A stretch of DNA of 64,000 nt from Sphagnum compactum (lineage: Eukaryota): positions 18,404,213 to 18,468,212 of the forward strand of contig OZ234493.1 in NCBI GenBank assembly GCA_965153455.1, in the 5' to 3' direction. Below the pieces are notes generated by a model. That model did no database searches, was not told where the DNA came from, and saw only the letters and a program-made list of their open reading frames with translations. The position numbers and the translations under genes are program-made. Shown in pieces: positions 15,170 through 52,620 of the stretch; the first letter of the stretch is position 1; each line of letters opens with the position of its first letter.

Positions 15170-16654
15170 TGATTTTGACTCTATTCTTATGTCTGTTTGG
15201 ACGTACAAGATCTCCTCATGTCACAAAACCCCAAGTACCAATCTTATTAGACAGAAGGAGATCATATTCTGCAGTCATCAGGCACTATGCTCTCGATGGT
15301 TTTAGCACCACCACACAATGCAACGTTACCCTGGGAATGAAGCTCAGTGATTGCAGTGAAGTGGTGGATGACCTGGGGTGGAGATTAAAGCTCTGTTCTG
15401 CAGCCTTGTGCCAAAAACAGACAATTTGGTGCCAGACTAATTACCAGCAGCCAGGTACTTATTTCCTTGGGATCTGCTATGGCCTATGCATCCTTTAGCT
15501 TGCAAATGGATGGAAGGGTGATTGTAAGTAACGGAGTGAGAGTGATGTTGAATGCTGAAAATGTCAGAACCATTAGTGGCACAAGTTGCTCAATGCAGTT
15601 TGTTTGCAGTCCACCCTATATTGGAGCTTTGAATTCCAGTTGCCAAATTGAGGTTGCCTCTAAGGTAGTGCATTTGACAGTTTATGTTTAATGACCCTTT
15701 CTCATGGCAGATGTGCAGAATTAGAACAATATATTGTTGGGCACAGGAGAACAAACAGTAGGATATGACATTGCAAAGAAGATATCCAGATGGGTGTCTG
15801 GCTCATCAACAAGGGTGATGCCTATATGGTGAACATGGTGTACAAGTGCAGACATAGTGGACTACAACCTCTCCATCATCTTCCAGTCCTAGAGTTGTGG
15901 CACAAATTACCTCTGTATCCAGTTTCACATCATTTAAGCAAAAAAGTTAGAAAGAAACCAAAATTTCAATTTCTTTTGTCTTCATTTTACTTTAGTGGAA
16001 GTTTGGGCATCATAAGCTGTGTGCCTTCATATTTTCCTTTGAGAGCTTTGCTACCAAGTTTCTGGTCAAAAGGCCCACAAGCTCAAAACCAAAATTCATC
16101 CACTGATTAGGGTGGAATAGCTGATGCAGGTTTACAACCTGTAGTTCCTGAGCCTCATAATTCTTGTCCATTGAGGTTTCAATTAAACAGTGATGGTGTC
16201 AGAGTTGATGAATCAATTGATGCGCTTACTACAATGTTGCAAGAGGTTTGAGGTATTTTTCTTCGAGGAATTTCATACAGATTATGTAAATTAATATCAG
16301 TGTAAATAGCTCAACAGAACTGTGCACAACCCCTTTCAATGCTGAATACTTGGTGCTAGGAACACCTCTGGGGTTGTGATCTTCAGTTTGTCATCTGTGG
16401 TTGAGGGAACATTAAGGGGAGTTGCTTGCAATGGTCTCTCTAGTGACATGCAATGTGTTCATTTTAACTGCAAGCAGTCAATCTAACTTGGAGCATGTAG
16501 CTAAGGTGTGTGAAATCAACCCAGATGAGTTTGCAGAGATTGATTACTTTGCAATTTATATTTCTTGGGTGAGCCTGTCTTCAAGAGCAACTTCCAAATT
16601 GGGAAGCTCACCTCTAACAAGTATGATAGAACAAATTGAGAAGCCCTTCCCAGT
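15170..16654 (+). pseudogene. Unidentified decayed coding-like sequence; target of the two MULE insertions, continuing at 22514-22551 and from 37569
   Basis: Coding-like composition, splice-like sites (AAG|GTAG near 15664, GGCAG near 15710); the 16422 frame stays open across both reconstructed empty sites. Confidence 0.35.
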
Positions 16655-19600
16655 GGTTGGAGTGAACCAGCAGCCACCAGTGCACCAGTTCAGGATGAGG
16701 CTGTTCAAGCTGTTTTGGGGATGAACCAAAAAACACATCCTCTTCCCCTGCCCAGGGATTTTTCGGCCCCCTTCTTTGCCCCAAAATTTTCCCCTCCTAC
16801 CTACCTCCCCCCAATGACCTCCCTCACCTCATTTCCCGTTCACTCCATCTCCAGAGCTCGGGAGAGCTCCCAAGCTTGAGTAGCACAGAACTTTGAGGAG
16901 ACATGAAACATAGGGCTTGAGGAAGGTGGAGAGGAGAATGCAAGAGGAGTGCTTCATCCCAAATGTAGAAGCAGGAGAAGAAAGGTAAGCTCCCTTCCTT
17001 TGCATTTTTTTTTCTTCTCTATGATTTTGTTTTTTTGTATTTTTTTTCTTTTCTTTTGCTTGAGAAGAAGAAGACGCCATCCACTTCTTCTTTTGTTTTT
17101 TTGTTTATGTTTGAAATGACAAAGGTATTGACACAAGTGTGATGTTGCCTTTTTCTTTTCTTTTGTTTTTTTGTTGCAAACAAGGCAACGACAACAAGCC
17201 TAATTTTTCCTTCTTTCTGTTTGAAATGAAGGAGATGACGGCGGCAAGCTTGTTGCCATTGCATTTTTTTTTCTTCTCTTGTTGTTATTGTGAATAAGGC
17301 AACGACAACAAGCTTCCTATCGTCGCCCATTTTTCTTCTTTTTGCTTGAAGTGAAAATGGGTGACGGCAACAAGCTTGTTGTCGTCACCTTTTCTTTTGT
17401 TGGTGTTGCTACAAAGAAGGTGATAGCAGCTGTCGTCGCCTTTTTCAAGTGTTTTGTTGCAAAGAAGGCAATGGCTTACTAAACCCTAAACCCTTCTTTT
17501 TTTTTCTCTTTTTTTTTCTTGGTCTTTTTACTGTGAAGAATTGTTAATTGTTCTTTAGAATTGATAATTAACAGTGATCTGCTGGTTTTTTTAAATGTTT
17601 AAGGTTATAATGGCTAAAGGAAGGAGACTAAAGAAAGTTGGTGGTGATTTGGAAGCTCAAAACTAAAAATTTATTTCATTAGAACCGACAATTGGGGAGC
17701 AAAATGTTACTCCATCAAAACCAAGAGTTGATGAATCAAGCAATCCATGTGGCTTAAACTTGGCAATGGTGGTTGTTTGCAATTCAAATGATGATATCCC
17801 TTCCAATACAGATTGGGAATTTTGATTGAAAAGTGGTGGATTAAATTGTTGTAGAATCTACATACATTGATCAAATGCAGAAAAAAAATTGTACAAAAAG
17901 ATTTAAATTTAATTATACCTGCACCTTCTATCATTTCATGGACAGTGTGGGATTTGTTTTTCAAAAAAAAATTATTACAATACTTGAAAAAGGTTAAAGT
18001 TTGTAATAATTGCATTTGATTATGTGATTTTATTTTTTGCAATATTTACATTCTGTTGTGTGATTTTTTTATGTCTAAGGTTTTAAAGTTAAGGTTTTTT
18101 TATTACAAAGTAAAAACTTATTTGTTTTTATAGTTTTTGGTTTAGGTCTGGAGTTTGAAACTGACTAGGCCTTTCAACCATTAGCACCCTCTTGTCCATT
18201 TAATATGGCTCGGAAGGATAAAGAATGGATGAACGTTGGGTCGAAATGGAAATGTAAAGTTGGCACTTGCATTGTTGCATATTCTACCAAATGGTTGTTG
18301 AGTAAGCATTTGGAGGTGCATGGCTTAGTGGTTAAAAAGGCCAAACCTGGGAAGCCTTCAATTTTTTAAGGAGGTCCTTGACATCAAGACCATGCTAAAA
18401 TGAACATTCGCATCTTGGGAAATGCCATGGCCATGCATAAACAAAATGATCAAAAGGTTGTTAATTGCATTTGTGCCAAAGCCCAATGTGAGTGGGATAA
18501 AATGGTAATTGTTGTAGAACAATGTCCACCATTACCAAAACCAACTTTGGTCAAATTAACTTCAAAACAAATGTTATAAGTGTTGGGTCTTAATGCTTAA
18601 GGCATGGGAAGCAAGCCTTGAAATGCAGCATCACTAATGGAGAAGGACGAAAATTTACAAGAAATGACTCAATCCATCCGTTAAACATATGCACGATGAT
18701 TGAAAATGGCATGGGATGTCAAAAATTGGGATTAGGAGTCCACTAAAACGAGTCGAACACAAACGTTGACAATTGTATTGAATTTCCATGAATCTAAAAT
18801 GATTCATGGAAAATAAGAAAAAATAATAATCAATATTTGTTGTTTTTTTATAATTTTGTTTCATCCAAGGTGTGTTAGGGTTTAATTTGGTGGTTTTTGG
18901 GTGTTTATAGGGTTTAGGGCAAAACAAAGGAGGAGTTTGTTACAAATGCAATTCATGTTGAAATGTAATGCCAACATTTGAACATTCCTTGTCATGTAGT
19001 AAGGGCTACAAATGCGACAATTGCTTACCAAGTTAAACACGACATTATAAATAGTGATATGGTTTTAGGTTTCCATTTTATATAGTTAGTTAATTCATTT
19101 TTTGGACTACCCACTTTTTGAACTTTGGTCCTTTGATATATTATAGAGAACCTTTTTTTTTCATTGGGTTCTTTAGCATTTTTTGATTCACCCATTTTTT
19201 TACATCTTTTATCAATATAATATTTTCTTCTAGTCACACTTCTTTGATGGGTATACGGTTAATCATATATGTTTTCTTTTTTATCATCTTCTTAGTGCTT
19301 TAGATGTAATAATCAAACTAAAATAGTCCCATATGCACATTTTATAATTAATTTGTGTGAGGTTTACAAAGATCAAAATGAACATAGTGCAATACCTACG
19401 TTTAGTGTATTATGATTCACATCACTTAAAGATTTTTAAAACAGTACCCACATTCTAATTAGTTTATTGGCATTTTCATGAAACCAAACATGCAATACCT
19501 ACATCCTTTTTATTTTAACTTCCATAAGGCCATTTCAAATATGCAATACTTGCATATAGGTCTCATAAATAGTTGTTGGTTTTTTACATCTATTGCAATA

Positions 19601-22504
19601 TTCGCATATAGGTCTCCATTGGAATATTTATGGGATTCATATGATTGAATAATTTAGTCTAAGTATCAACAAATAATGTCACAATTAATGAATTACCAAA
19701 AACAATTTCAAATAATGTAAATGATTGATCATCATATTTAAATAATCATTTATTTCTTAATATTAATTAATTGATTATTTGGTTGAACCTTAATTATTCA
19801 GATAATTAAAATTTAGATTTAAAAATCAAATTGATAATTTGATATTTAATTTATTATCTTAATTAAATTTTTTATGTTGATAAGTTATTCAAATCATTAT
19901 TTTAGATAATGATTCATGATAATTAATTTTCATAAAATTAATTTAGGTATATAAAAAGACATATTTTGGGTACCCAAACCACTTATTGGTTATTTGAAAT
20001 GACCTTACATGTGGGTATTGCATTTAGGGTGGACCTTTCATTTAAGGTTGATTAAATTACTTATGGATTCTTTAATTATTTCGAAATGAACTTACATTTA
20101 GGTATTGTATATAGGCCTTAATTTTCATTCAAAGGACACCCAAACTACATATTGGTTATTTTGAAATGACCCTACATGTGGATATTGCGTTTAAGGTTGG
20201 GTCTGCAACTCAGGTTACTTAAATCACCTATGGGTTATATTGAAATGAACTTGAATATGGGTATTACATTTACGGCGACGTATTCATATAATTTTATAAT
20301 ACCTGCACACATATTTATTTTCACCAACTACAAATTTGGCTTTAATTTTTTTAATAATTAAATAAAATTCGTAACAAAACACAAAAGAAGGTATGTCTCT
20401 TACCGTTTGGTCATATTTCCAAGCTGAGTTCTTTCACTTTAAAAAAAAAGAAATATAATGACATTGCATTGTTTTACATATGTTTAAGCCTTAAAAATTG
20501 TGCCCAAAATGCACCATAGATTTATTTTAATTATTATAAAATTGTAAAAAAAATGTTAATTAATTTATATGTCCCAACCTCTAAACCTAAACCATAATTC
20601 TAACATTAAATAGTAAATTTTACATTAAACCCTAACCCTTTGTACCATCAATGGGACCAATTTTTCATTATGTTTATTTTTATATATGTTAAATCATACT
20701 ATTAGGTGAACAAATAATTTTGAAAACATGAATCTCATGATGGATTGGTGGGGAATCAAATATTTAAAAAATATTTTTATGTTTCATGGTTAATGAATTA
20801 TCACAATATGATACGAGTATTGCATTTAAATTAAAGAGGGTTAAAAAATATTGAACTTTAACAATTATGGAACATATGGAAACAAAGGAGATTCATAATT
20901 GTGGTATAGATCTAAACAAATGATAGGATCAAAAACTAATACAATGAGCAAAGTCTAGAGTATAAACCTTAAGCTTTGATATGTATGAACCAAATTCTTA
21001 AACATTAAATCATAAGGCATAACTTTAAAAATTGAAATGATATTTTTCCATAAGCACTATTACAACTTTAACTAAACGAACCCTAACAAAAAAAAATCTT
21101 AGTGATATATGCCCTAAACCCAAGAAATTATGCAAAACATACAAATTATATAATGCAAAACAATTTTTTTTAAATTAGAAAATAAATTTTAAAGCTTTTA
21201 AACTACAAAGATTTACCAACTGAAGAGAAAACCTTAATTTTAAAAAACAATCAAATAAATTTCGTAAAAAACCAAAAGAGAAGTTAGGTTTGTTACCTTT
21301 GTATGATCTCTCCAAGCTAATTTTTTTCCATTTTCTTTGAAGAAGATATAGAATGAAATTGTATTATTTCACCTATGTCCAAACCTTAAAAATTTCCCCC
21401 CAAATTTAGTTTAATTTAGGTTAATTACTATAAATTTGTGAAAAACTTGCCAACTAATTTATGTGTTCCAACCTTAAACTTAAACCATAATTTAATAATA
21501 CATACTTATAATAATTACATGAAAAGATGTATTATAATGTCCATTCCATAAATAAATTAGGTAAACAAAATTTTGTAAACTATGAATTAATTAAACCAAA
21601 ATGGTTGCAATTATGACATTGTTTCCATTATAAATTGTTTATAATACCTACATATGGGGACCTATGTTCATCATCCATGAACTAGGGCGAACCTTAATAA
21701 ATTGATAAGTAGGATTAAGGGAGGGGTGGAAAAAGTGAGTAGGTAATTAGTTAGGTATTTAGCAATGTAAAAAACATAGGTAGGTAAGTAAACATAATGG
21801 TAGGTAGGAAGGTGGGTGCATAGGTAGGTAAGTAGGTATATAGGTAGGTAGTTGGGTTGGTAGGTAGGTTAATAAAGTAAAAAGGAATTTCAAGAAACAA
21901 GGTAAATAGGTTACTAAGGTAGGTAGGCATGTAGGTAGGCAAGTTAGTAGGTAGGAAAAAAGTTATTCTAGCAATGTAGCAAGGTAGATAAATTAGTACA
22001 TAGGAAACAAATTACCTTATCAAGGTGGCTAGGTTTGTAGAATACTTATGTCAATAGGGTGGTTGTGTATATAGGGTTGTTAAATAGTAAGGTAGCTAGG
22101 TCAATAGGGTACGTGTTAGTACAATGGTTACGTTAGTAGGGAAGCTAAATCGATAGGGTATGTAGTCAACAGGGTAGCTAGGTTAGGAGGGTAGGTAGTT
22201 AATATAATAGCTAGGTTAGTAGGATAATTAGTTATTAAGGTAGCTATGTCAGTAGGGGATAATTAGTAAGGTACCAAGGTTGGTAGAGTACTTATGATAG
22301 TAGGAAAATGAATAGGGTAACTATGTGTGAGGTCAAGTCTAAGAAAAAACAATCAAGAACAAACCCCATAAAAAAAAACATTAGTCAGCAGCGAAAATAA
22401 ATGGACTGTGATGAACCTCATATGGTGTCGAATGGAAGAATGCAGCCCATCTAGTGAACAGAATGGCGAACTGGTGCATTGGTGGTTGTTGGTTCATTCT
22501 GGCC
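16655..22504. mobile_element. MULE copy A, non-autonomous (5850 bp), transposase deleted
   Basis: TIRs of about 36 bp (GGTTGGAGTGAACCAGCAGCCACCAGTGCACCAGTT ... AACTGGTGCATTGGTGGTTGTTGGTTCATTCTGGCC); perfect 9-bp TSD CTTCCCAGT at 16646-16654 and 22505-22513; both arms are homologous to copy B in inverted orientation. Confidence 0.93.
17610..18816 (+). pseudogene. MULE accessory gene with C2H2 zinc finger (copy A), decayed
   Basis: ATG 17610 MAKGRRLKKVGG; acceptor TTTAG at 18145; CKVGTC-x12-HLEVH at about 18253-18321; ends ESKMIHGK* at 18816; several stops and frameshifts. Confidence 0.75.
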
Positions 22505-24732
22505 CTTCCCAGTGGTGTTGTCTTGCCACCAATTCAAAACTCAGTATAATAGGCCAAAATGAACCAGCAGCCACCAATGCACCAATTGGTCGTTTTGTCC
22601 ACTGGATGGGTTGTGTTTTTCATTCTGCGTCGGATGGGGTTCATCACAGTCCATTTCTTTTTGTTGCTGACCACTGTATTTTTTTTATTTTTATTTTTTT
22701 GGTTCTAGCCTTTTTTCCCCTGGACCTAACCTCACACATAGCTACCCTGTTCACTTTCCTACCCTCATAAGTATTGCACCAACCTTGGTACCTTATTTAT
22801 TATCCCCTATTAACACAACTACCCTAATAACTAGTTATCCTATTGACCTAGTTACTATACTAACCACCTACCCTACTAACCTAGCTACCCTATTAATTAC
22901 AAACCTTACCAACTTAACCACTGTACTAACTACCTACCCTATTGACCTAGCTACCCTACATACACAACCACCCTATTGACATAAGTATTTTACAAACCTA
23001 GTCACCTTGATAAGGTAACTTATTTCTTATGTACTAACTTGCCTATCTACCTAACTACCTATTTATCTATGTTTTTTACATAACCAAATACCTAATTAAC
23101 TACCTACTCATTTTTTCCACCCCCACCCCCCCCTCAATCCTACCTATCAATTTATTAAGGTTTGCCCACATGTAAGTATGATAAACAATTTATAGTGAAA
23201 ACAATGCCATAATTGCATCCATTTTGGTTTAGTTAATGCATATTTTACTAAATTTTGTTTACCTAATTTATTATTGAATGGACATTACAATACATCTTTT
23301 CATGTAATTATTATAAGTATGTACTATTGGATTATGGTTTAGGTTTAGGGTTGAGACACATAAATTAGTTAATAAATGTTTCACAAATGTATAGTAATTA
23401 ATCTAAAGTAGGCTAAATTTGGGGGGAAAATTTTAGGGTTTACACATATGTGAAGTAATACAATTGCATTCTATATCTTCTTAAAAAAGAGTGGGAAAAA
23501 TTAGCTTGGAAAGATCACACAAAGGTAAAAGACATATCTTCTCTTTTGGTTTTGTACAAAATTTATTTGATTGTTTTTAAATATTAACATATTTTCTTTC
23601 AGTCAATAAATATTTATAATATAAAACCTTTAAATTTTGGTTTCTAAATTTTTTCCTATGTCTTTTTAAATTTTTTTATTTTGCATTATATAATTTGTAT
23701 AGTTTGTATAGTTTTTTGGGTTTAGGACATATATCACTAAGACATTTTTTGTTAAAATTTGTATAGTTAGGGTTGTAATAAGGCTTATGGCAAAATATCA
23801 TTTGGATTTTTAGGGTTATGCTTTATGATTTAGTGTATAGGAATTTGATTCATATATTTCAAAACCTAAGGTTTATACTTTAAATTTTGCTCATTGTATT
23901 GGTTTTTGATCTTATCACTTGTTTATATCTATACCATAATTATGAATCTCCTTTGTTTCCATATGTTCCATAGTTGTTAGAGTTTAATATTTTCTAACCC
24001 ATTTTTGTATGAGTTATGATTTTTTAAGGTTGCGTTTTCAATTGGGATTATAAACTTTGGTGGAACGTTGTCATCTTTTATTCCTAAAGGTATGCATTTG
24101 TCTCTTGTTACTTCTTTTGTTTTTTTGTTTATATTTTCATAATTCAACCTCTTTTCATTTCATAGTTATTGGATATAAAAAGGGCGTCAAATTTCATTAA
24201 GTATACAACCATAAATAAAGGTTTTATACCTTTACATGGATATTTCATATTCAATATCTCTTTGTAGTTTATTTTTTCATACCCATATGCGAATAATGCA
24301 TTGACTCCCCACAACCAGCGTGGGTTTTATGGCTTAAGGCAGGTATTGCATTTTGCACCTCTCAAACAGTGTGCATTAATTATCATTATGTGGGTATTGC
24401 TACATGGGGTTTTTAGACATTGTGGGTTTAAGGTACAATCCGGGTATTGCATATGTGAACATTTTCAATGATGGAAGGTTTAATAGCTCAATGTGGGTAT
24501 TACCAAAGTTTGTTTTAGTATATGGGTTCATAATGCAAGTATTGTATGTTATGTACATTGGAACAGTAGGTATTTTATATCATGATATGGGTATTGTAAT
24601 GGGAATTCCAAGTCACAACATTGATTTTAAAGGAGCCATGTATGGATTGCATTTTGGGTTTTTGTTCAATGACGAATGTTTATAAAATTATAAATTTTCT
24701 TGGTGCAAGAATTTGTCCTACTTCCTTCAATC

Positions 24733-27512
24733 ATGAAAAGGGTTCTAAAGTCCCATTCCATTCATGTCCAAAACCCCACCAAGTCCTCTTTCTCAAACAA
24801 AGAGTTGGTGTGGACGTCCGGGATACACCATGGAGGGCAAAATAAAGTGACCATTCAATTTGCTTACGTTCCATATGCTCACATCTCAGAATTCTTGGAA
24901 GGTGAACGAGGGGATACGAGCACCCCTATGGAATGGAATGTTTACAAAAATTTCCAAGCCAAACAGATGTCAAGCAACCAACTATCAAAAACCACTTCGG
25001 GCATACATGGTAAACATTTATGGCATTAACCTTTTTAATTTCTTTAATTCATATACCAAAGATGTAATCCTTTATGTTTTGAAAGTTTTTTGGTCTGGGT
25101 ATCAATGTGGATATGGACCAGAGGACTATTGGGGAAAACTCAACCCACACTCGATCTATTAAACGAGGATGCCTAACATCATTCTCAATCAAATGTCTAT
25201 ACACACGACCTCATGTGGCTGAGATCACAATTTATCATAAAGCCCATACATGAATTGATGGGTCATTCGCACATGGTGAGCATGACCCAAAATCCATTTC
25301 TCGTATGTTTCGTTATGCTCCACGCATGTCACAAGCATTGAAGGACCACATATGGGCCCAACTAAGCTTAGGTTACACAACCAAACAAATATATGACAAG
25401 CATAAAGCAATTTGGTGGGAAGGTGTGAATGCGGGTCAAAGCATGACACGAGATGATTTCATTTGGCTTTAAAACATTGCATATTTGGATCGGAAACATA
25501 AAAAAGGGAGTTGGCATTTACACACCAACCCTGTAATTTCAATTCGGTCTTGGGCTCTCCAACATCCGAAAGATGTGTTCTTTTTCCAAGATGTTGGTGA
25601 AATCAACGGGACTCAAGTCCCATTCACCATAGGTATTCAAACACCAACTCAATGTGAGTCCATGCTATCATATGGTCACAATGCTGCCATTTTTATGGAT
25701 GCCATATTTGGCACAAATGACATGAAATTCCATCTATTCACCTTGATGGGGTTTGATGATCATCGCACGGGTGTCCCCTGAGCTTGGATCATTACAAGTA
25801 GGCAAACAGTTCAGGATTTGATCAAATGGTTAAAACCATTAAAAGAGAAGATGTTATCACACATGCCACATTGGAAACCATCATGTTTTCTCGTTGATGA
25901 TGCACTTCAAGAATTGAAGGCATTACGGTTAGTTCTATACCTAGTACCTACTTTGTGTTTATTTCCTTAAATGTTTTTTAATATATTTCATAAAAAAATT
26001 TATTACTTCAAATGCATTTTATGTTGTATTAACCCCATCCACTCATGGAGATTTTATTGCATATGTGTCCTTATTAGGGTCGTATGGGGTATGGACAAGG
26101 TTCCCATCTACCTTTGTTGTTGGCATGTTCTCAAAGCATGGCGCTTACGTGGTACTGAAAAAATCAAAGATGTGGAAGTGCGAGGTTGAATCCTCTAAGA
26201 CCTTCATGATGTGATCTACATGTCCATCAATCATGGAGAAACAATTGATGACTTCAAAGAGCGTGGGAGGGTTGCTGTGAGAGAAAACCTTCTTAAACAT
26301 AGGCCTGGTGATGGGTGGACAAATTATTTCTGGACTTATTACCATCAGTTTAGTAAGTGATAATATTTATCATGGTTTAGTATTCAAAATTCTTTTATAT
26401 AATGTTATTCATCCTTATGTATTATGTTTATGTTTGCAAAATTATGGATGGAGAGTGTTCGAAGAGTGTCCCATTCCAACCAAGACACCTAAGCGAGCAT
26501 TGAATCATATCATGGTGTGTTGAAATGTTGGCTTGTTCTTAACACAAAAGGCCTTAGAGGGCGTAGGATTGATTAGTTGGTGTGGCGATTAACAACAACC
26601 ATTGCACGCCATTATATGCACACACTGGAAATGAAAAAAAAAGGTTTCATAAAAAACAAGGTTATGGAGGCGATTATTACACGAAGTGTGGAAAAGGCAG
26701 CCCTTATTTCACTCACCCATGTGTACCAACCAACCCTTGAGAGTGATGGAGCTTGGGGCGTACGAAGCCAACACCTTCCCAATGTTATTTACGCGGTGAA
26801 ATTCCCATTCACCGAAATATTTTGTTGCACATGTGAATGGGCATTGCGAAGGAACATGTGTAAACACCAAATTGTGGTCATTCTCACATGCATAGACATT
26901 TCTCAAGAGGATATCATTCATTACTGTGGAACATGGTATGGATCACATCGTGGAGGGTTGGGTCACATGTTTGTGGACCCACGACATATTCCAGATGATA
27001 TGGAGTCCAATGATGATGATGAAGATGAACATCTTGAAGGTGATGATGGGATCATGGAATTTGATGGGCTCATGAACATGGAGCAAAATGATCTCCCTAT
27101 GGGTGCCATTGTAGGGTCTAATGACACAATAAATTCATCAACCCCAATGGAAAAGGCTCTTGCACAATTGGTCACTACAATGCAAGATATCACAAATGAA
27201 TGTAAAGAAGGTGATGTGACACTTTGTGAACATGCCACCTCACACATGAGAGTATCGGCATGTAATATTCGTAACATACGCCTCACAAAGGCAAATGTAA
27301 TTTCACACCTAGGATTGGTGTTACGCCGCGTAGAAGATGGATTGGGAAATAGTGTCAAACGGCTCAAAGATTGGCATGAAACAATGCTCAATCACACAAA
27401 TGTACGTACTAAACGATGTCACGAATTAATGTCTCAATTACTAATCAAGATTGTTGCCATTGGCACTAAAGAATTTTGTTTTATAATCAATTTTGTATGG
27501 AGGAAACCATAG
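24733..27512 (+). pseudogene. MULE (Mutator-like) DDE transposase with SWIM zinc finger, intron-containing, inactivated by stops
   Basis: FMDAIFGTNDMKFHLFTLMGFD..GVP*AWIIT (first D), SCFLVDDALQE (second D), LCCWHVLKAW (CxxH), ASIESYHG (E), SWIM CTCEWALRRNMCKH; introns at about 25010-25097, 25928-26077 and 26352-26440; stops at e.g. 25779, 26187, 26574. Confidence 0.9.
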
Positions 27513-27654
27513 CCCAAATTCTTTGAACATCATGTATTCAACACACACATGAAGTTTAATATGGCACAAAGGTTATTATTGTTTCCAAGTAATAAGCACA
27601 AAAAGTGTGAAATGCAAAAACACAAGGATAATGATAATATTAGTGTTAAATGCA

Positions 27655-28125
27655 GGTATTGTAACTAGGCCCCAAAATCCCAGTTGGTAAAAGTAAGTAC
27701 AAGTGCAAGTATTTCAATGATGCCCCAAAATTCCAGTTGGTAAATATAAGTACGGGTGTAGGTATTGCAATGAAACCCCAAAATTCCAGTTGGTGAAGTA
27801 AGTCCGGGTATTGCAAGTTTAAATGAAAAATCAAGCCTAAATGCAATACTCATCTAAATGGTTTGGATACCTTTAAGTGAAGACCTAGTCCTAAACATAA
27901 TATCCACCTGCAAAGTCACTTTGAAATAACCTAACCCTATATGCAATACTTGCATTCAAGGTTACTCCGAAAGTACGCATGTGGGGTTTAAGCCTTCTTT
28001 AAACGAAGATCCTACGCTAAATGCAATACCTGCATTTTGGGTCACTTCGAAAGTACGCATGTGGGGTTTAAGCCTTTTTAAATGAAGATCCTACCCTAAA
28101 TGCAATACCTACATTTTGGGTCACT
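27655..28125. repeat. Tandem repeats downstream of the transposase (about 52 bp x3, then about 79 bp x2.5)
   Basis: CCCCAAAATTCCAGTTGGT recurs three times; GAAAGTACGCATGTGGGGTTTAAGCC recurs twice; the units carry GTATTG/GCAATAC-like motifs. Confidence 0.85.
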
Positions 28126-30594
28126 CTAAAATAATTAGCTAATTTCAAAATAATATGCTAACAAAGGTGTGTATAGAGGTTGGGGTTGTTGATTAGGAGT
28201 TCCATGATTCTTACTTTGTTTCATGAATTTGAAAAGAGGTTGTATCGTTTGTGGAACAAATAGTACAATGACAATTGTGATCAAGTTTATCTTCGTGTAA
28301 GAATTTTTCATGAAAAAGTTGAACTTGCAATCTATAACATGGAATAATTATCTTAAATAGTGATTTCAATAACTTATTAAAACAAAAATATACTTAAGTT
28401 AATCAATCAAATATCAAATTAATTAATCTGATTTTTAGATCCAACTTTTTATTATCCAAATAAATAAAGTTACGCCAAATGATTAGTTAATTATTTTAAA
28501 TAAATAATGATTATCTAATTCTTGATAATTAATCATTTAAATTATCTGAAATATTGGTCTATTAATTATTTCATTATATGACAAAATTTATTGATAATTC
28601 ATTGATTATCAGAAATATTTCATATTAAATTGGGGGGAAATTTTTAAGGTTTAGACATATGTGAAATAATACAACTTCATTCTATATCTTCTTCAAAGAG
28701 ATTGGAAAAATTAGGTTAGAGTTGTCACACAAAGGTAAGAAGCAAACCTTATGTGAAAACCCAACCCTAAATGCAATACAAAGTTTGTCAAGATCAAAAA
28801 AAAAAATTCAAGCTTAAAATTTCTTCAAATATGTTCATATTTTTTTTTTCCCTTTTAAAGTTGTAAACTCATTTCAAAAAACATATATATAAATTTTCTA
28901 ATTTAATAAGATTTTAAACTATGTTTTAAAAAAAATCAAAGCACATGATTTTCTACTTTTTTTTTGTTTTGTTTCACATAATAATAAAAATGATCTCTCC
29001 CATATATTAATCCTATGTTTGATTGAAATTTTATTTTATAATTTTCTGATATATAGTAAATAATTTCTTGGTTAAAATAATCATATAGCGGGTCAAAAAT
29101 ATTTTATATTTTATACATATATAACACAAGTCCTTATGTGAACTTTATTTTTTATGATGTATAATATTGGTTTAAATATTGGTCCAAATATATTGTTATT
29201 TATAACACAAATATATAAATAATGATATTATGGAATTATATTGTTGATTCATTTAAATACATATAATATTTTCATATTTATTTAAAATAAAAAAATTTGA
29301 TATATATATATATATATAAACCTATGGTTACATATATTGCAATTGTTCTTAATGAACTTTGTTTTTAATGTGAATGTAAAAATTTCAAAAGATTAATAGC
29401 TAGGTATGAGAATGTTCATAAGCTCTTAGACGCCATGCCAGAGTTTGTGTGGATTTTAAAAGCTTTGTGAAGGCCAAGTTATGTAATGTTTTCGACACCT
29501 TTAGAAGCTGAAACATGACTCGACTATCTAAAAAACACAATAGTGTTCATAAAAAAACAACCAAGAATCTATAGCCTTGACAAATTACTAGTTTCAACAA
29601 AAGCTCATTGCCAAGGTTATTAGATTGACTAAAGTGTCGACATTAACCAAACTAAACAACTTAGCCTAAACATGAGTAACAGGTTAGTAAGTTATTTGTT
29701 AAATAACCTAATTAACTACCTAATAGGCTACCTACGTAATATAGGCCTATTATGTAGTTTATTCATTAGTGTAGGCCTTCTAGGTTAATATCTTAGATGG
29801 TCTATGTAGGTATTGAAGGTGGTTGAGTTTATTAAGTAAACATACTAGTTATATAAGTAGTTTACTAGCCTAGGCCACATAAGCCTAATAAGCGTTTATG
29901 ATAGTTTAATGTCTAATCCTTATTATATTATAACATATTAAATTTGAATAATTTTTTAAAAAAAAAACACATTTTTTCATATAATTGTTATAAGTATATA
30001 TTATTGGAATATGATTATAATTTAGAGCTTGGGAAACCCTAAATTAATTAACATTTTTTCACAAGTCCATAGTAAATAAAATAAATCTACGGTGCATTTT
30101 AAGGGGAATTTTATATGCAAAACAATGCAATATATATTTTTAAAGAAAGTGAAAGAGATCAGCTTGGAAATATTAACAAATGGTAAGAGATATACCTTCT
30201 TTTGTGTTTTGTTACAAATTTTATTTAGTTATTAAAAAAATTTAAGGCTAAATTTGTAATTGGTGAAAGTAAGTATGTGTGTGAATATTACAAAATTATA
30301 TGAAACCTTAACCCTAAATGCAATAGCCATATTCAAGTTCATTTCAAAATAACCCATAGGTGAATAAGGTAAAACCTGCAATGAAAGGGCAACCTTAAAT
30401 GCAATACCCACATGTAAGGTCGCTTTGAAATACTCAATATGTAGTTTGGGTGCGCCTTTGAATGAAAACCAAAGCCTAGATGCAATACCCACATGTAACA
30501 TCATTTCAAAATAATTAATAAGTGATATGGGTATCTAAAATATGTTTTTTTATATACCTAAATTAATTATTATTCTGAATTAATTTTATGACAA

Positions 30595-30815
30595 ACTACA
30601 AGTTTTGCAATGAATGTACAAAACAAGCAACTATTATGGGACCTATATGCAAGTATTGCAAGGAATGTAAAAAACCAGTGACTATTATGGGACCAATATG
30701 CGAGTATTGTAAGGAATGTAAAAAACTAGCAAAAACTATGGGACCCATATGCGGGTGTTGCAATGAATGTAAAATGCCAGCGACTATTATGGGACCCATA
30801 TGCAGGTATTGCATA
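30595..30815. repeat. 48-bp tandem repeat (about 4.5 units)
   Basis: GAATGTAAAAAACCAGYGACTATTATGGGACCMATATGCRAGTATTGCAA units; the repeat explains the CxxC-repeat ORF 30588-30902. Confidence 0.9.
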
Positions 30816-31492
30816 TTTGAAAATGGCTTTATGGAATTTATAATAGAAAATGATGTAGGTATTATATGTTTAAAATGTGTGTATTGTTTTAAAAGTCTTT
30901 AGGTGATGTGAGTCCTATTACATTAGATGTAAGTATTGCACAATGTTCATTTTAATCTTTGTAGACCTTAGACAAATTAATGTTACCTATTCATATGGTC
31001 CTATTTAAGGTTTGATTCTTACATCTCAAGTACTAAGAAAATTATGACAAAAAAGACATATATGATTAATCATATATCGATCAAACAAATGTGACTAAAA
31101 GATAATATAATATTGATAAAAGATGTACAAAAATGGGTGGATGAAAAATTACCAAAGAACCCAATGAAAAAAAAGGGTTTTTTATAACATACCAAAGGAC
31201 CAAAGCTTAAAAATTGGGTAGTCCAAACAATAAAAGGGTTGAAAAACCTAGCTAACTATATAAAGTGAAACCCTAAACCATATCGATATTTATAATCCTG
31301 TGTTTAGTTTGGTAAGCAACTACTGCATTTGCAGCCTTTATTGCATGATGAGTAGTGTAGAAATGGCGCCATTGCATTTCAGCCTGAACTGCATTTGGAA
31401 CAAATTCTTCTTTTGTTTTGTCCTAAACCTTAACACACCTTGAATGAAATAAAATTATATATAAAAAAATAAACATTGATTATTATTGTTTC

Positions 31493-34400
31493 TTACCTTC
31501 CATGAATCATTCTAGATTCATGAAAATCTAATACATTTGTTAACTAATTTGTCCGATTTGCTTTACTGGACTTTTGATCCCAATTTTTGACATCCCATGC
31601 CATCTTTAATTGTCATGCATATACACAACAGGTGGATCGAATCATCTCTTGTAAATCTTCATCCTTCTCCATCCGTGATGTTACATCTCGAGGCACACTG
31701 CCCACGCCCCAAGCATTGAGACCCAACACCTACCACTAGTAGAAATCAACCAAAATGTAACCACTCCATTTACGACTACATGCGATTAGTAGTCGTTTAC
31801 GACTCGATTTGGGAACATTTGCAACTCCAGGACCATATTTCAACTATTTTGGTCATTCTCACAACTATGATGCAACTATTAAAAAATTTCATCCTATTGG
31901 TTGGATCAATTCTACATTTATTTTCATCCATTAATAGGTTGATATGTCCCATTAGTCACAATAGTCACCAAATTAGTTGCATCCTAAAGGTATTCTACAA
32001 TGACATAAGCGTGTATTTTAATGTATGTACTAAAATTATATATATATAATATGCATATGTATGTATATTGTTCATATAATGAATCTCAAAATTAATATTT
32101 GAACTTTCAATTTTTTATTCAAATCTCAAAATTGATATTTCAATTCTGAAAACTATTATTTTATTTTTAAAAATATATTAGAATTTGAAACGTGATGTTT
32201 GAATCTGAAAATTATTATTTCAATTGTTTAAAACATTATGTGAATTTCAATTTTTTGATTTGAATATGATTTTTTCAATTTAAATTCAAAAAGGCTTATT
32301 TGATACAAAAATTGATATTTGAATTCTAAATTAATATTTTTAAATCCAAAAATTAATATTTCAATTCAGAAATTATTAATTGATTATAAAAACATTTTAA
32401 TTTTGAATATTTTTATATGAATATGAAAATTTCTATTTGAACTCAAAAATTATGCATTTAAATTTTAAATAATTATTTGATTTGAACCTGAAATTTCAAT
32501 TCCAAATTATTATTTTGGATTCTCAAAATTAATATTTCAAGTCTGAAAATTTATTAATTGAGTCTAAAAATGGACATTTCAATTTTGAATATTGTTACTT
32601 GAATCTGAAAATTGACATTTCCATTCTGGAAATTGTTATTTAAATTCAAAAAAATTATTTGATCTAAAAAATGATATTTGATTTCTAAATTATTATTCTC
32701 GAATCTAAAAATTAGTATTTCAATTTTAAGAAATTATTTGACTTGAAAGTTGAAATTTGAATTCCAAATTATTATTTTGGATTTTCGAAATTAATATTTC
32801 AATTCAGAAAATTGTTAATTGAGTCTTAAAATGGACATTTCAATTTTGAATATTCTTATTTGAATCTGAAAATTGACATTTCAATTCTGGAAATTGTTAC
32901 TTAAATTCATAAAATTTATTTGATCTAAAAATTGATATTTGAATTCTAAATTATTATTTTCGAATCTAAAAATTAGTATTTCAATTCAAAAACTATATTG
33001 AGTCTAAAAATTGACATTTTGATTGAAAATAGTTTTATTTGGACTTGAAATTTGATATTTGAATTGTGAAGTTTAAAATTTCAATTTTAATTTGACTTGA
33101 AAGTTGAAATTTGATTTCCAAATTATTATTTTGGATTTTCGAAATTAATATTTAAATTCAGAAAATTGTTAATTGAGTCTTAAAATGGACATTCTAATTT
33201 TAAAGATTATAATTTGAATCTGAAAATTGAAATTCCAATTCTGAAATTTGTTATTTACCTTCAAAAAACTTATTTGATCTAAAAATTGATATTTGAATTC
33301 TGAATTACTATTTTAGAATCTTAAATTTATATTTTAATTCAAAAAATTATTGGTTGAATTTTAAGAGTTTTTCTACTAATGTTATCCATAATAAATCACT
33401 TTTATAAATAATTATAAATGATTATGTTTATTAAATCTAAGTTACATAAAATTATTATTGTGTGTAATATATATTTGTATGTTATATAATTTATATTCTT
33501 ATATTAGAAGTTTAATTAATATAATTAATGTTACATTACTTGAAAATCATTGTAATGATTTCAGATAAGAATTAATTAGTATATGCATAATTATTTTCTA
33601 ATTGAACTTAATATTCACACTCTGTAATTTATAAGTGCAAACCTAAATTAAAAATTTGGAAAAATGTCAGTGTAATTAAAATAATTATTTTATTGATTTT
33701 AATTTCATGAGTTATTGTATATATATATATATATATTAATTTTATGATTAATCATCTATGATAAATATTTTATAGTAATTTTACAGTATTTATGAAAATT
33801 AATGTCATGTTTAACAAATTATTGTATTTATAGTTAACAATTACCAAGAGAAAAAAATTACTTGACCTACAATAATTTTTACAACAATAAATGTAATTAT
33901 AAAATAAGTAATGTAATTAGTTGAATAATAATTTTTCGAAATTTTGTTACTTTTTAATAACAATTGTTAATTCATTACTTCTAATTTTAACATAAATATT
34001 TAAAATATTTTACATTAATTATATTATATATAATTCGATCAAATTCCTAAAATAATAAAATATTTTAAAATATTTTAGTTATTTAATTATTTATGAGTTA
34101 TGTACTAATAACTTGTGAGTAACTAGATAGTTAGTTTGTTAAATATTAAGAAGTTATTACTTATTTAAGTAATTGATAATGAATGTTGAATATTTGTAGT
34201 GTATAATTTATAATTAAATATATGTAAATTTAATCATTATTAATTAAATGATTATCTAGTTATGTAGTACTTGAATTGTTTAGAAATCTAAAAACTAAGA
34301 AAGTAAGGCATGAAGAAAGTTTTGGAATTACAACTTAGTTTGTGAGGAAGTTGCAAGTTCAAAATTTATCCCATATTGTTTGTTCTTGATTCCTATTTTG

Positions 34401-36198
34401 AACACTATATAAACAAGGGGGTGTGGTCATCCAATTTCACATTAAGAAATTTGTGCACATGGGATGAGTTAATTAAAAAGCTCAACGCAAAACAAAAAAA
34501 CAAATTATGCACATTTCTAAAATATTTACCTTCCTAACCTACTTATCTACCTAGCTAGGTAGGTACCTAGTTTGACCTACCCCTCTAGGTTGACCTATGT
34601 AACTACCTACTTAAATACCTACCTATATGAGTAGGTATTTAACCTAGGAACGTAAAACCTACCTACTCATTAAACCTAAGTAGGTAGGTTAGTATGTAGC
34701 CTAGGTTTGTAGGCACCTATTTATGTACCTACCCAACTACCTACCAACCTAATATTAATATTTTTATTAAATTATTTTTATGCCACGTGGCATACTTACA
34801 TTGGGCCACGTGTCATAATATAATATCATCCAAGTATTTGAATTGAACGTCCTAGATATTTCAAAATAATAATAATTATATTTTATAATTAAATATTAAG
34901 ACCCGTGGCAACACATCATTTGCCGTCAATTGTGACCAAAATAGTTGCATCTTAGTCGCATGTGACAATACGTATACAATGGAGTCAAAGGATGAAATGT
35001 ATTTGTTGACTTTTTCTTTCATACAATACCCTTTGTCATTTGCGACTACTTTATCACATGCGACTTATCTTAGGCGACTAAAGGGATTTTAGTTGCAAAA
35101 TGTTTCTTGCAACTAAAATTTAGTCACAAAGACTAGTCGAAAATACATATTTTTCTTCTAGTGTACAACAGGTGTTCTGAAGCTAATTTGATCAAAGCTG
35201 GTTTTGGGAATGGTGGACATTATTTTGCAATAGCTACCAGGTTATTCCACTTGCGTTGTGCTTTGGCACGAACGTGACTAGCAACCTTTTGATCATTCCA
35301 CCTTTGCACAGCCATGGCATTTCCCAAGATGCGAGCATTCATTTTAGCATGGTCTTGATGTCGAGGACTTCTTTCAAAAGTTGAAGGCCTCTTAGGTTTG
35401 GCCTTTTCTGCCACCAAGCCATGCACCTCCTTCAAATGCTTGGTCAACAACCATTTGGCAAAATATGCGACAATGCAAGTGCCAACTTTACACTTCCATT
35501 TCAACCCAACCTTCGTCCATTCTTTGTCCTTCTAAGCCAAATTAGGTGGACAAGGGGGTGCCGGTGGCTGAGAAGCCTGGTCGATTTCAAGTTCCGGACC
35601 TAAACCAAAAAATATCAAGAAGTAAATCAATATTTTGTAATAAAAAAATCTTAACCCTAAAACCTTACACATAAAGAGTTCAAAAAACAGAATGCAGGTA
35701 TTACAAAACATAAAATCACACAATCACATATTATTCCTGTAAACTTTAATTGTTTTCAGGTATTGCAATAAAAAAATTTTGACAAAAAAAATCCCGCACC
35801 TTCCAACAAATGATGGAAGGTACAGATACAATTAAACTTCAAAAAACTTGTACAATTTTTTTTATCTGCATTTAATCTAATGTCCATAAATTTAAAAAAA
35901 ACCTATATTACAAACTGTCATCCTTGTCAACTCTAATCCACATAGATTGTTTGATACATCAATTTTCAATTCTCATTTCTAATGAAACAACATTTTGCTC
36001 CTCAGGTATTAATTATGATAGAACACCATTTTGCTCAGCAATTGCCTCATCTGATGCAACAACATTTTGCTCAACAATTGCCTCATCTGATGTAGTAACA
36101 TTTTGCTCAATAATTGCCTCATTTGATGCAGCAACATTTTGTTTGTGAACTTCCCAATCACCACCACCACTTTTTTTCAATCTCTTTCCTCTAGCCAT
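31493..36198 (-). pseudogene. MULE accessory gene with C2H2 zinc finger (copy B), convergent with the transposase and split by the CACTA insertion
   Basis: ATG 36198 MARGKRLKKSGG plus 12-aa repeats (EQNVxxSDEAIx); next exon from about 35599 with C-x4-C-x12-H-x4-H (CKVGTCIVAYFAKWLLTKHLKEVH); resumes below 31733 as VLGLNAWGVGSVPRDVTSRMEKDEDLQEMIRS..ESRMIHGR*; colinear with 17610-18816. Confidence 0.8.
31734..35163. mobile_element. Non-autonomous CACTA (En/Spm) element, 3430 bp
   Basis: Ends CACTAGTAGAAA ... TTCTTCTAGTG; 3-bp TSD TAC (31731-31733, 35164-35166); subterminal CGACTA/TAGTCG/TAGTTGCA motifs; AT-rich internal tandem array at about 32080-33350; absent from homologous copy A. Confidence 0.93.
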
Positions 36199-36269
36199 TA
36201 CAACCTTCAACATAAAAAAAACCACCATTTCATTGTTAATTATCAATTCTAATGAACTAAACCAAAAGG

Positions 36270-37200
36270 ACTAAAGAAACAAAGAAAAAAAAAAACCGCC
36301 TGCTGCCATTGCCTTCTTAAAAACAACACCATCATAGAAGAAGGTGACGACATTGCTGCCGTCAGCTTCTTCGTAGCAAAACCACCAAAAAGAGGCGCAA
36401 GCCGCCATTTTCTTGCAACAAATCCCTCGAAGAAGGTGACGAAAGTTGTTGTCTTCTTTTTCTTCACTACAACAAAACCATAAAAGAAGATGATGGCTCA
36501 TTACCGTTGCCTTCTTTGTTGCAACAAAACGATAACAAAAGGTGACACTGCCATTGCCTTCTTCGATGCGCTGCTACAAAACAAAAAGAGGAAGGCAACG
36601 ACAACATTGTTGTCGTCGCCTTCTTTGCTACAACAAAACGAAAATAAAAGGCGATGGCAATAATACTGTCGTCGCCTTCTACGCTACACAAAAAAAAAAA
36701 GGTGACGACAGCTTTGTTGCTGTCGCCTTTGCTACGCTACAACAAAACAAAAAGAAGAATGTGACAGTAGCAACGCTACTGTCGCCTTCTACGTTGCAAT
36801 TTTAAAAAAAAGGCGACGGTAGCTTTGTTGTTGTTGCCTTCTTCGCAGCACTGCAACAAAATAAAAAGAAGAAGGCGATGGCAGCAACACTACCATCGCC
36901 TTCTTTGCTGCCGTCGCTTTCTACGCTGCAACAAAAAAAAAGAAGTAGAAGCAATGTCAGCCTTCTTCACAGCGCTGCAACAAAACAAAAAGAAGAAGGC
37001 GATGACAACTTTACAAAGCTGCCATTGCCTTTTGCATTCTAACAAAAAAAAAAAAAAAAGTTGCCGTTGCCTTCTTCGCTGCGTTGAAACAAAAGAAAAA
37101 AAAGAAGGTGACGGCAGCAACGTTGCCATTGCCTTCTACGCTGCAGCAAAAAAGAAGAAAAAAACGATGGCAGCTTTGCAACAAAACAAAAAAAAGAAAA
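36270..37200. repeat. Array of short palindromic units (AAGAAGGCGAYGRCAGC..GYTGYCGTCGCCTTCTT) upstream of the accessory gene; shorter counterpart at about 17050-17480
   Basis: GAAGGYGAYG and CRTYGCCTTC alternate, separated by GCTRCAACAAAA and poly-A. Confidence 0.85.
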
Positions 37201-41635: not shown

Positions 41636-42440
41636 CCTTGTCCATCGATGGACCGAATTTGTCCACCTTTGTCCAAAAGCCAATCGCTTACCCAAGAATG
41701 CAACCGAAATTGTCCACCCATGTCCAGGTAGCAATCAGCCTTGTCTAAGGTTTGTAACTAAATTTTGGTCGGCCTGGTGAACAATCACCCTTATCCAAAA
41801 GTGTGATCGAAATTGTCCACCCTTGTTTAGGTAACAATTAGCTTTGTCTAAGGTTTGCAACCAAATTTTGATTAGCTCGATGAGTGATCACCTTTGTCCA
41901 AAAATGCGACTGAAATTTTTGACCCCTGTCCAGGTAATGATAGGTCTTATCCAAGGATTGCAATTGAATTTTGGTCGAACTAGTGAATGATCACCCTTGT
42001 CCAAAAGTCTGACCAAAATTCTCCACCTTTATCCAAGTAGAGATTACCTTTGTCCAAGGAGTGTAACCAAATTTCAGTCAACTTGGCAAGCAATTGCCTT
42101 TGTCCAAGAATGCGACTGAAATTTTCCACCCTTGTTTAGGTAGCAATTGCCCTTATCCAAGGAATGTGATCAAATTTTGATCCACCTGGTGAGCGATCGC
42201 CCCTATCCAAGAGTGCAACTAAATTTTCCACCCTTGTCCAAGTAGCGATTGGCCTTATCCAAGGAGTGCGATCAAATTTTAGTCGTCTTGGCAAATGATC
42301 ACCCCTATCCAAACATGCGACCAAAATTCCCACCCTTGTCTAGGTAACAATCGGCCTTATCTAAGGAATGTGACCGAATTTTGGTCAGCCCAACAAGCAA
42401 TCACCGTTGTCCAAAAGGTGCCGACCAAATTTTGGTCATT
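41636..42440. repeat. Tandem array with unit of about 102 bp, 7-8 copies
   Basis: AAATTxTCCACCC recurs near 41707, 41810, 41912, 42016, 42118, 42221 and 42323; sub-repeats CCTTRTCCAA and TGCGACC. Confidence 0.9.
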
Positions 42441-52039: not shown

Positions 52040-52620
52040 TAATGATTTTCCAATTATTTTAGGTTATTCCACCTTAGGTTATTTCAATTATTTAAAATTA
52101 TTTCGTCTTATTTTCTTTTCAACTATTATTTTAAATTGTTATACCCTAAGTTATTTTCAATATTTTAAAATTATTCCACCTTGAATTATTATAGGTTGTT
52201 TTACCTTTTTTTATTCTCAACTAATTTAAGTCATTCCACCTTAAGCTATTTTAAACTATTATACCTGAAGTTATTTTCTTGAAACCATTTTAAGTTATTC
52301 CACCTTAAATTATTTAGGCTATTTTACCCAATATTATTCTGAGTTATTTTACCCTAAACCATTTTCAATTATTATAGGCTATTCCATTTTAAGTTATTTT
52401 AAACTATTGTATCATAAGATATTCTTGACTATTTTAAGTTATTCCACCCTAAATTATTTTTAATTATTCTACTTTAGGTTTATTTTTGTTATTCTACCTT
52501 AGGATTCTTTTTATTATTCTATTTTAAGATATTCTAAGTTATTTCACCTTAAATTAGTTTATTTTAAGATATTTTCAATATTTTATGTTAATCCATTTTA
52601 GTATATTCTAGGCTATTCCA
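52040..52620. repeat. AT-rich tandem array (TTATTCCACCTTAAGTTATTTT variants)
   Basis: Directly visible short degenerate units. Confidence 0.85.

Follow-up and report, generated by a model that had tools for sequence, protein, structure and literature searches.

What does a short motif do when it has been multiplied in the interior of a transposon, kilobases away from the transposon ends? This question is raised by a 64-kb stretch of Sphagnum compactum DNA (the window, that is, the whole of the DNA analysed here), which holds two copies of a family of Mutator-like elements (MULEs). The first copy, E1 (16654-22502, minus strand), and the second, E2 (22552-37558, plus strand), are littered in their non-coding parts with the word GTATTGC or its complement GCAATAC, and E2 carries the remains of a transposase gene and of an accessory gene for a protein with a zinc-finger-like segment. 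A reading of the locus made from the letters of the sequence (hereafter the sequence-only reading) had written the motif as RGTATTGCA and had taken it for the binding site of the zinc-finger protein encoded by the element. Our analysis leads to a longer motif, ATGYRRGTATTGCA, which we tentatively regard as an amplified, putative recognition site of a regulator encoded by the element itself, most probably the zinc-finger accessory protein, with a confidence that falls somewhat short of even.

The amplified motif is a 14-base imperfect palindrome

Exact copies of GTATTGC/GCAATAC were found 24 times in the window, compared with 7.34 ± 2.90 in 100 dinucleotide shuffles, of which the maximum was 15 and none reached 24. 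The interval of interest, 19385-30940, makes up 18% of the window and contains 21 of the 24 copies, the remaining three being located at 1065, 35760 (within E2) and 48058. The amplification described in the sequence-only reading is therefore real, and the 18 copy positions listed there all match within 2 bases. When RGTATTGCA was searched with up to one mismatch, 72 matches were obtained (40.9 ± 6.65 in shuffles), 34 of them within the same interval. Comparison of word frequencies between the non-coding DNA of E1 and E2 (14.6 kb) and the DNA outside them (43 kb) gave the same enrichment: the top-enriched 9-mer of the elements, GGTATTGCA, occurs 13 times inside and never outside, and the motif core, GTATTGCA, 21 times inside and once outside.

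The boundaries of the motif were drawn from a logo of 40 sites, which was anchored on the 8-base core and in which six repeat families were weighted equally. The six positions upstream of the core, ATGYRR, had played no role in the selection of sites, and they carry 0.83-1.35 bits each across the six families. Outside the motif, position -7 carries 0.09 bits, and positions +8 and +9 carry 0.14-0.34 bits. Because ATGYRR is informative and the information then drops sharply on either side, the full motif is the 14-base imperfect palindrome ATGYRRGTATTGCA, in which the half-sites ATGCA and TGCAT flank a fixed asymmetric centre. Thus RGTATTGCA is enriched as had been claimed, and the true unit is longer. 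The copy at 19542 sits in a perfect 19-bp palindrome, and in the 80-bp repeat units described below the palindrome around the motif is extended to about 29 bp.

With up to two mismatches, ATGYRRGTATTGCA has 44 matches in the whole window (4.78 ± 2.31 expected). Forty-two of these lie inside E1 or E2, while the two found elsewhere, in 43 kb, are both poor matches. No match at this stringency falls in the 2.8-kb transposase gene. One of the 42 in-element matches lies inside a CACTA-type element nested in E2 and is probably due to chance.

Motif arrays lie in non-coding DNA around the transposase gene

In E2, the motif is organized in arrays at two places, proximally upstream of the transposase gene and in the space of about 4 kb between the convergent 3' ends of the transposase and accessory genes. 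The upstream array, U (24287-24651, plus strand), holds eight copies, 42-53 bp apart and all in transposase orientation, which precede the first ATG of the transposase frame by 80-450 bp; its period is about 51 bp, and it is too decayed for detection by Tandem Repeats Finder. The intergenic space, from the transposase stop (27512) to the accessory stop (about 31493), contains 18 copies in all. Directly past the transposase stop, array D1 (27650-27815, plus strand) has four copies in 53-bp units. It is followed by array D2 (27842-28126, minus strand), with four copies, three of them in 80-bp units that have the motif at the palindrome centre, and by a single copy at 28772 related to this array. 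Array D3 (30300-30530, minus strand) has three copies in 81-bp units and is a distant kin of D2, and array D4 (30599-30940, plus strand) consists of five 51-bp units and two more copies, at 550-900 bp past the stop of the zinc-finger gene. Two further copies are present in the first intron of the accessory gene (35692-35767). These positions agree with the earlier description, in which copies cluster shortly before the transposase and in the space between the two convergent 3' ends. The tandem units had been put at about 48, 52 and 79 bp; Tandem Repeats Finder gave 53 bp (27651-27828), 80 bp (27934-28126) and 51 bp (30599-30813), and a 48-bp unit was not reported by it.

E1 carries counterparts of arrays D3 and D4. 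Array D4' (19388-19607, minus strand), with four copies, is orthologous to D4, and array D3' (20009-20268, plus strand), with four copies about 80 bp apart, is orthologous to D3. There is also a single copy beyond D3' (20811-20824), and two decayed copies remain in the accessory intron (18002-18051). Since they are orthologues of E2 30319-30940, the E1 copies at 19388-20268 are not the independent occurrences that they had been counted as. The 51-bp units number two in E1 and five in E2, whereas the 80-bp units number four in E1 and three in E2. This difference indicates ongoing expansion and contraction of the arrays.

No motif array lies less than 1.7 kb from any element terminus. The nearest arrays of E2 are 1.7 kb from its left end and 6.6 kb from its right end (3.2 kb without the nested insertion), and those of E1 are 1.7-2.7 kb from the ends. 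Because of this distance of at least 1.7 kb, the arrays may be read as a regulatory platform, which would activate the transposase gene or keep it unsilenced, and not as end-binding sites for cut-and-paste transposition. In such a scheme, ATGYRRGTATTGCA would have been multiplied in the peat-moss MULE family as tandem repeats formed in the non-coding surroundings of the transposase gene, and the most likely binder would be the element's own accessory protein.

The distance from the ends also bears on a role of the transposase itself. Its N-terminal DNA-binding region might bind the motif, either for autoregulation or for the loading of many transposase molecules, which would resemble the subterminal repeats of Ac, En/Spm and Muta1. 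Short repeated motifs bound by element proteins are the rule in DNA transposons, and E1 keeps nine motif copies downstream of its zinc-finger gene, as an element mobilized in trans might do. According to a report on Muta1, a MULE of mosquito, short tandem motifs aid the binding of the element protein, the recognition motif is palindromic as in the moss, and both transposase binding and excision are increased by the 12-bp subterminal repeats (PMC5499845). On the other hand, the 12-bp repeats of Muta1 are described there as lying inside a 145-bp terminal inverted repeat and binding the transposase, whereas the moss repeats are internal, kilobases from the ends and not within a few hundred bases of them (PMC5499845). 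Moreover, the termini and subterminal regions of the moss elements are occupied by other repeats, and domain scans of the N-terminal frames of the transposase recognized no DNA-binding domain. We consider it unlikely that the transposase is the binder.

The position of array U could also suggest a host transcription factor, for which the arrays would serve as an enhancer or promoter of tissue- or condition-specific expression. Eight copies immediately precede the transposase frame, and a host factor acting as a dimer would fit a palindromic site. The 80-bp units join the motif to a word resembling the telomere repeat, AACCCTAAA, which we take to be a known plant promoter element. However, most copies are downstream of both genes and not in promoter positions, and a widely used host site would be expected near host genes, where the 43 kb of host DNA, a small sample, yielded just the two poor matches out of 44. 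A host factor as the reader of the arrays is, in our view, quite improbable.

Two further readings of the repeats were tried and dropped. Hairpins or structured RNA were considered for the 80-bp units, in which DNA folds reached z = -2.2 to -2.8 in three of five units, a value that reflects the palindrome itself. Splice-site mimicry was considered because of a likeness of the motif (TGCAG followed by GTATT) to both splice-site consensuses; the arrays lie outside the inferred exons.

The motif outlasts its repeat units in the oldest array

To what extent is the motif distinct from the tandem repeats that contain it? After removal of the 14-bp motif, units of the same family could still be aligned with z = 15-31, whereas alignments between families gave best z values of 0.7-4.8, each being the best of 9-15 comparisons. 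The sole clear kinship between arrays is that of the two 80-bp arrays, so the units are largely, except for this pair, as unrelated as had been claimed. The units of array U are near random outside the motif (best z = 2.6). When the eight units were aligned, the motif window showed the highest mean column identity, 0.67 versus 0.43 overall, a comparison somewhat in favour of the motif window as the units were cut by motif position. In this oldest array, only the motif has remained conserved. The information carried by ATGYRR, the imperfect palindrome and the retention of the motif in the oldest array support the reading of ATGYRRGTATTGCA as a putative recognition site.

The accessory protein is a candidate for the binder

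The accessory pseudogene of E2 (36198-31493, minus strand) has two exons and is convergent with the transposase gene. Exon 1 starts from the ATG at 36198, and exon 2 (35606-35164 plus 31732-31493) is interrupted by the nested CACTA-type insertion. The copy in E1 (17610-18816, plus strand) has in-frame stops. The encoded protein has a basic N-terminus, followed by acidic tandem repeats of 12 residues, a single C2H2-like finger and a long basic helix; this layout resembles that of a sequence-specific activator or transcription factor. The acidic repeats are encoded by a 36-bp tandem repeat (36022-36141; 3.3 copies, 89% matches), and their number varies among E1, E2 and relatives in the database. 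Its finger is spaced C-x4-C-x12-H-x4-H, and an aromatic residue and a leucine occupy their canonical positions. An alignment of 56 members shows an invariant first cysteine and at least 90% conservation of the second cysteine and of both histidines, against a mean column identity of 65%. The sequence-only reading had described two MULEs with a transposase, convergent 3' ends and an element-encoded zinc-finger protein, and this anatomy is as described, the convergent gene coding for the protein with the C2H2-like finger.

An AlphaFold2 model of the accessory protein was only moderate, with a mean predicted local distance difference test score (pLDDT) of 67 and a predicted template modelling score of 0.30. 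In the finger region, the model shows a beta hairpin of two strands and a helix with pLDDT of about 70-80, and the basic helix of 45 residues after the finger has pLDDT above 90. A bZIP-like reading of this helix was dropped, as the spacing deviates by one residue and there is no zipper after it. The zinc-finger recognition code would presumably give roughly G-T-N for the finger, which we took to be too weak a prediction and did not use.

The accessory family has many relatives. Exon 2 of E2 is an open frame of 103 amino acids, for which 688 of 691 candidates of similar length are relatives at E ≤ 0.01; among the 120 matches listed, identity is 70-89%. Further 87 relatives are longer proteins. 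A naturally intact relative of the gene-model type has 281 amino acids. The named relatives come from Sphagnum balticum and S. jensenii only, and no relatives were found in bacterial and archaeal genome contigs. Because the relatives are many and lack both Pfam domains and informative names, the accessory family is abundant and undescribed. At E ≤ 0.01, neither the accessory frames nor three full-length relatives (P0304, P0275 and P0355) matched any Pfam family; the scan covered 53 of the 91 element frames of at least 55 amino acids plus longer ones, and about 17 short frames beside the A-type termini (E1 left, E2 right) were left out. A search of the ESM Atlas gave only weak C2H2-like leads (0.86-0.90). 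Literature searches on accessory zinc-finger or anti-silencing proteins of MULEs found nothing matching the moss protein, and those on Sphagnum Mutator/MULE transposons found no relevant paper.

Conservation between the two copies and a possible mechanical origin of the arrays

Several results weigh against a recognition site read by this protein. At orthologous sites of E1 and E2, identity is 105/131 (80.2%) in the motif versus 241/291 (82.8%) outside it (Fisher p = 0.50), and the excess conservation of the motif expected for a bound site was thus not seen in this comparison, in which the MULE family is represented as DNA by two copies. The equality may mean neutral decay, because stops in both genes mark E1 and E2 as dead copies. 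Two other types of repeat are amplified within the element, and the formation of repeats is therefore not special to the motif. In the logo, the core positions were chosen by the search itself, which leaves the six upstream positions as the only unbiased test. As for the protein, the best score of Pfam C2H2 models on the finger was 13 bits against a cut-off of 27, no relative was recovered from the PDB by Foldseek (one match, E = 6.4) or by a sequence profile search, and a single C2H2 finger usually reads just 3-4 bases. The earlier proposal of a zinc-finger protein site is partly supported, by the ATGYRR information, the palindrome and the conservation in the oldest array, and one form of the conservation test that had been set for it, the comparison between E1 and E2, goes against it.

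Some of these results would suit a motif of purely mechanical origin. In that case, a palindromic microhomology without any binding function would seed slippage or unequal exchange and would be carried along with new tandem units of varied filling. Arrays of three periods, each with one motif per unit, would follow from such a process, as would the lack of excess motif conservation between E1 and E2 and the formation of other, unrelated tandem repeats by the element. In the young arrays, moreover, the units are 80-89% alike, and the presence of the motif in them is therefore by descent. Yet this origin leaves unexplained why the motif alone survives in the decayed array U, why, across families, its conservation stops so sharply at the limits of 14 bases, and why it is retained by isolated copies away from the arrays (20811, 35692 and 35754, with the exact 8-base core also at 22771 and 28772). 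We hold a purely mechanical origin to be improbable. If the motif nevertheless proves unbound, the case still records the turnover of tandem repeats around a short palindrome.

Comparison with known transposon systems

The putative recognition of the motif by the accessory protein has its closest parallel in the VANDAL elements, a group of MULEs. To our knowledge, the VANDALs of Arabidopsis are the only transposons for which an element-encoded protein has been demonstrated to act in sequence-specific anti-silencing. According to the report on this system, VANC21 binds YAGTATTAY both in vivo and in vitro, and single-base changes abolish the binding; the motifs of VANDAL21 form dynamic tandem repeats in non-coding DNA, located upstream of VANA21 and in the introns of VANB21 and VANC21 (PMC5735166). 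This account agrees with what the sequence-only reading had stated of VANDAL21. VANC proteins are described there as having conserved domains (DUF1985 and DUF287) and variable regions of tandem peptide motifs (PMC5735166).

The anatomy of the moss elements closely parallels that of VANDAL21/VANC21, for which binding has been demonstrated. As in the published descriptions of VANDAL21/VANDAL6 and VANC21/VANC6, a MULE contains a motif of about 9-14 bases as fast-changing non-coding tandem repeats, the repeats lie upstream of the transposase gene and in an accessory intron and are absent from coding DNA, and the accessory protein combines a conserved part with a variable part of tandem peptide repeats (PMC5735166). 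The VANDAL and moss motifs even share AGTATT, which we treat as a coincidence. Between VANC21 and VANC6, a changed motif goes along with changes in the protein. There are also differences. The moss element ends in clear inverted repeats of about 30 bp, its motif is longer and palindromic, and its host is a moss. Its accessory protein has only a C2H2-like finger in place of DUF1985, DUF287 or any Pfam family, and neither of these two domains was found in the scanned element frames or in the full-length relatives P0304, P0275 and P0355. Because of the lack of these domains in the scans and of the clear inverted termini, the moss element is, as far as its sequence tells, not a member of the VANDAL/VANC system.

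It is conceivable, though we regard it as doubtful, that the moss MULE family convergently evolved the VANDAL strategy by means of an unrelated factor with a single finger and acidic repeats, which reads a 14-base palindrome. If this were true, element-specific activation or protection from silencing would result, and the combination of a private transcription factor with a private, amplified site would count as a general solution that plant DNA transposons reach by convergence. According to a recent survey, empirical support for such anti-silencing mechanisms is confined to context-specific cases (PMC12973397). The present case is a second, independent and directly testable candidate for the VANDAL/VANC principle in a distant plant lineage; a second, unrelated case, in a bryophyte, would show that transposons repeatedly come to pair a DNA-binding protein of their own with a private motif that is amplified. 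Such a case would add a new, compact pair of protein and 14-base site, with which chromatin or expression in plants could be controlled in a targeted way.

Other transposons share single traits with the moss elements. En/Spm, a CACTA element, has 12-bp subterminal motifs in both orientations, which are bound by TNPA, an element-encoded protein other than the transposase that acts on the promoter and methylation state of the element. A short repeated motif recognized by a non-transposase protein of the element is likewise what we propose for the moss. The En/Spm repeats, however, are no more than a few hundred bases away from the ends and are used in transposition, whereas the moss arrays are internal, and the two elements belong to different superfamilies. 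In MuDR of maize, mudrA and mudrB are convergently transcribed, and the 200-bp terminal inverted repeats act as promoters; we know of no amplified internal motif in it. The arrangement of two convergent genes, one for a transposase and one for an accessory protein, is thus common to MuDR and the moss element. The accessory protein of MuDR, MURB, interacts with MURA according to the survey (PMC12973397). For the moss protein, no similarity to MURB was found, and no search aimed at it was made.

Two independent MULE insertions

Each of the elements is bounded by a 10-bp target duplication, CCCTTCCCAG at 16644-16653 and 22503-22512 for E1 and CAGTATAATA at 22542-22551 and 37559-37568 for E2. Each 10-bp word is exact and occurs in the window at its two flanking places only, and the length of 10 bp fits the 9-11 bp of MULE target duplications in both elements. 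A terminal inverted repeat of about 30 bp is common to all four element ends. A first reading of the inverted repeat 16654-20612 / 30021-37560 as the kilobase-long inverted ends of a single element was rejected because of the two separate 10-bp target duplications and the four short termini. E1 and E2 align in inverted orientation with 72-81% identity. The segment 24006-30020 of E2, which includes the transposase gene, has no counterpart in E1. E1 is a deletion derivative, which has kept the accessory (zinc-finger) gene and two motif arrays and has lost the transposase, while E2 is a copy of the autonomous type, now decayed. The two insertions, opposite in orientation, are separated by just 29 bp of host DNA (22513-22541), a spacing that points to a local insertion preference or a hotspot.

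The transposase pseudogene of E2 (24733-27512, plus strand) has introns, in-frame stops and frameshifts, and 24733 is merely the first ATG of its first long frame. The MULE domain, PF10551, was recognized on 25473-25970 with 31.7 bits (cut-off 27.6), one in-frame TGA being read as X. A SWIM zinc finger in the transposase frame of E2 scored 8.3 bits, below the cut-off of 19.6. Relatives of the C-terminal frame of 311 amino acids carry MULE or SWIM domains: P0199 has a MULE domain (28.7 bits), and P0208 (30.6 bits) and P0269 (20.1 bits) have SWIM domains above the same cut-off of 19.6. A search with this C-terminal frame against longer proteins gave no match.

The element that interrupts exon 2 of the E2 accessory gene (31734-35160) is a non-autonomous element of the CACTA type, 3.4 kb in length with a guanine plus cytosine (GC) content of 22%. 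It has CACTAG... termini and a 3-bp target duplication, TAC, and its satellite interior shows periods of 21, 41, 182 and 261 bp.

Other repeats and genes of the window

A second word, GTAGGTA / TAGGTAGG, is amplified in the elements as well, with 24 copies inside and none outside. Its repeats of 17 and 33 bp are located at 21740-22300 and 22800-23110, beside the B-type termini (E1 right, E2 left). The word may be related to the main motif, because it overlaps the ATGTAGGTATTGCA variant of the latter. The A-type termini are adjoined by GC-rich hairpin repeats of 53 and 114 bp (GAAGGCGACGGCAGC...), which lie at 16990-17470 and 36300-37230, upstream of the accessory gene, and do not contain the main motif. 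In addition, a module of about 260 bp is present in five copies in both orientations (20353-20612, 21246-21504, 23331-23575, 30021-30254 and 28627-28741) and adjoins an 80-bp motif unit in two places, which suggests internal rearrangement or duplication of blocks of module plus motif.

Outside the elements, a direct segmental duplication, 3-2218 / 59143-61361, with 91% identity, contains 3' exons of a ribosomal protein gene of the L5P/RPL11 type. As a result of this duplication, the window holds two RPL11-type ribosomal protein genes; it also holds a pentatricopeptide repeat (PPR) fragment. Tandem-repeat blocks are also present outside the elements, at 41687-42433 and 52052-52620, with 65-76% self-identity and no copy of the motif.

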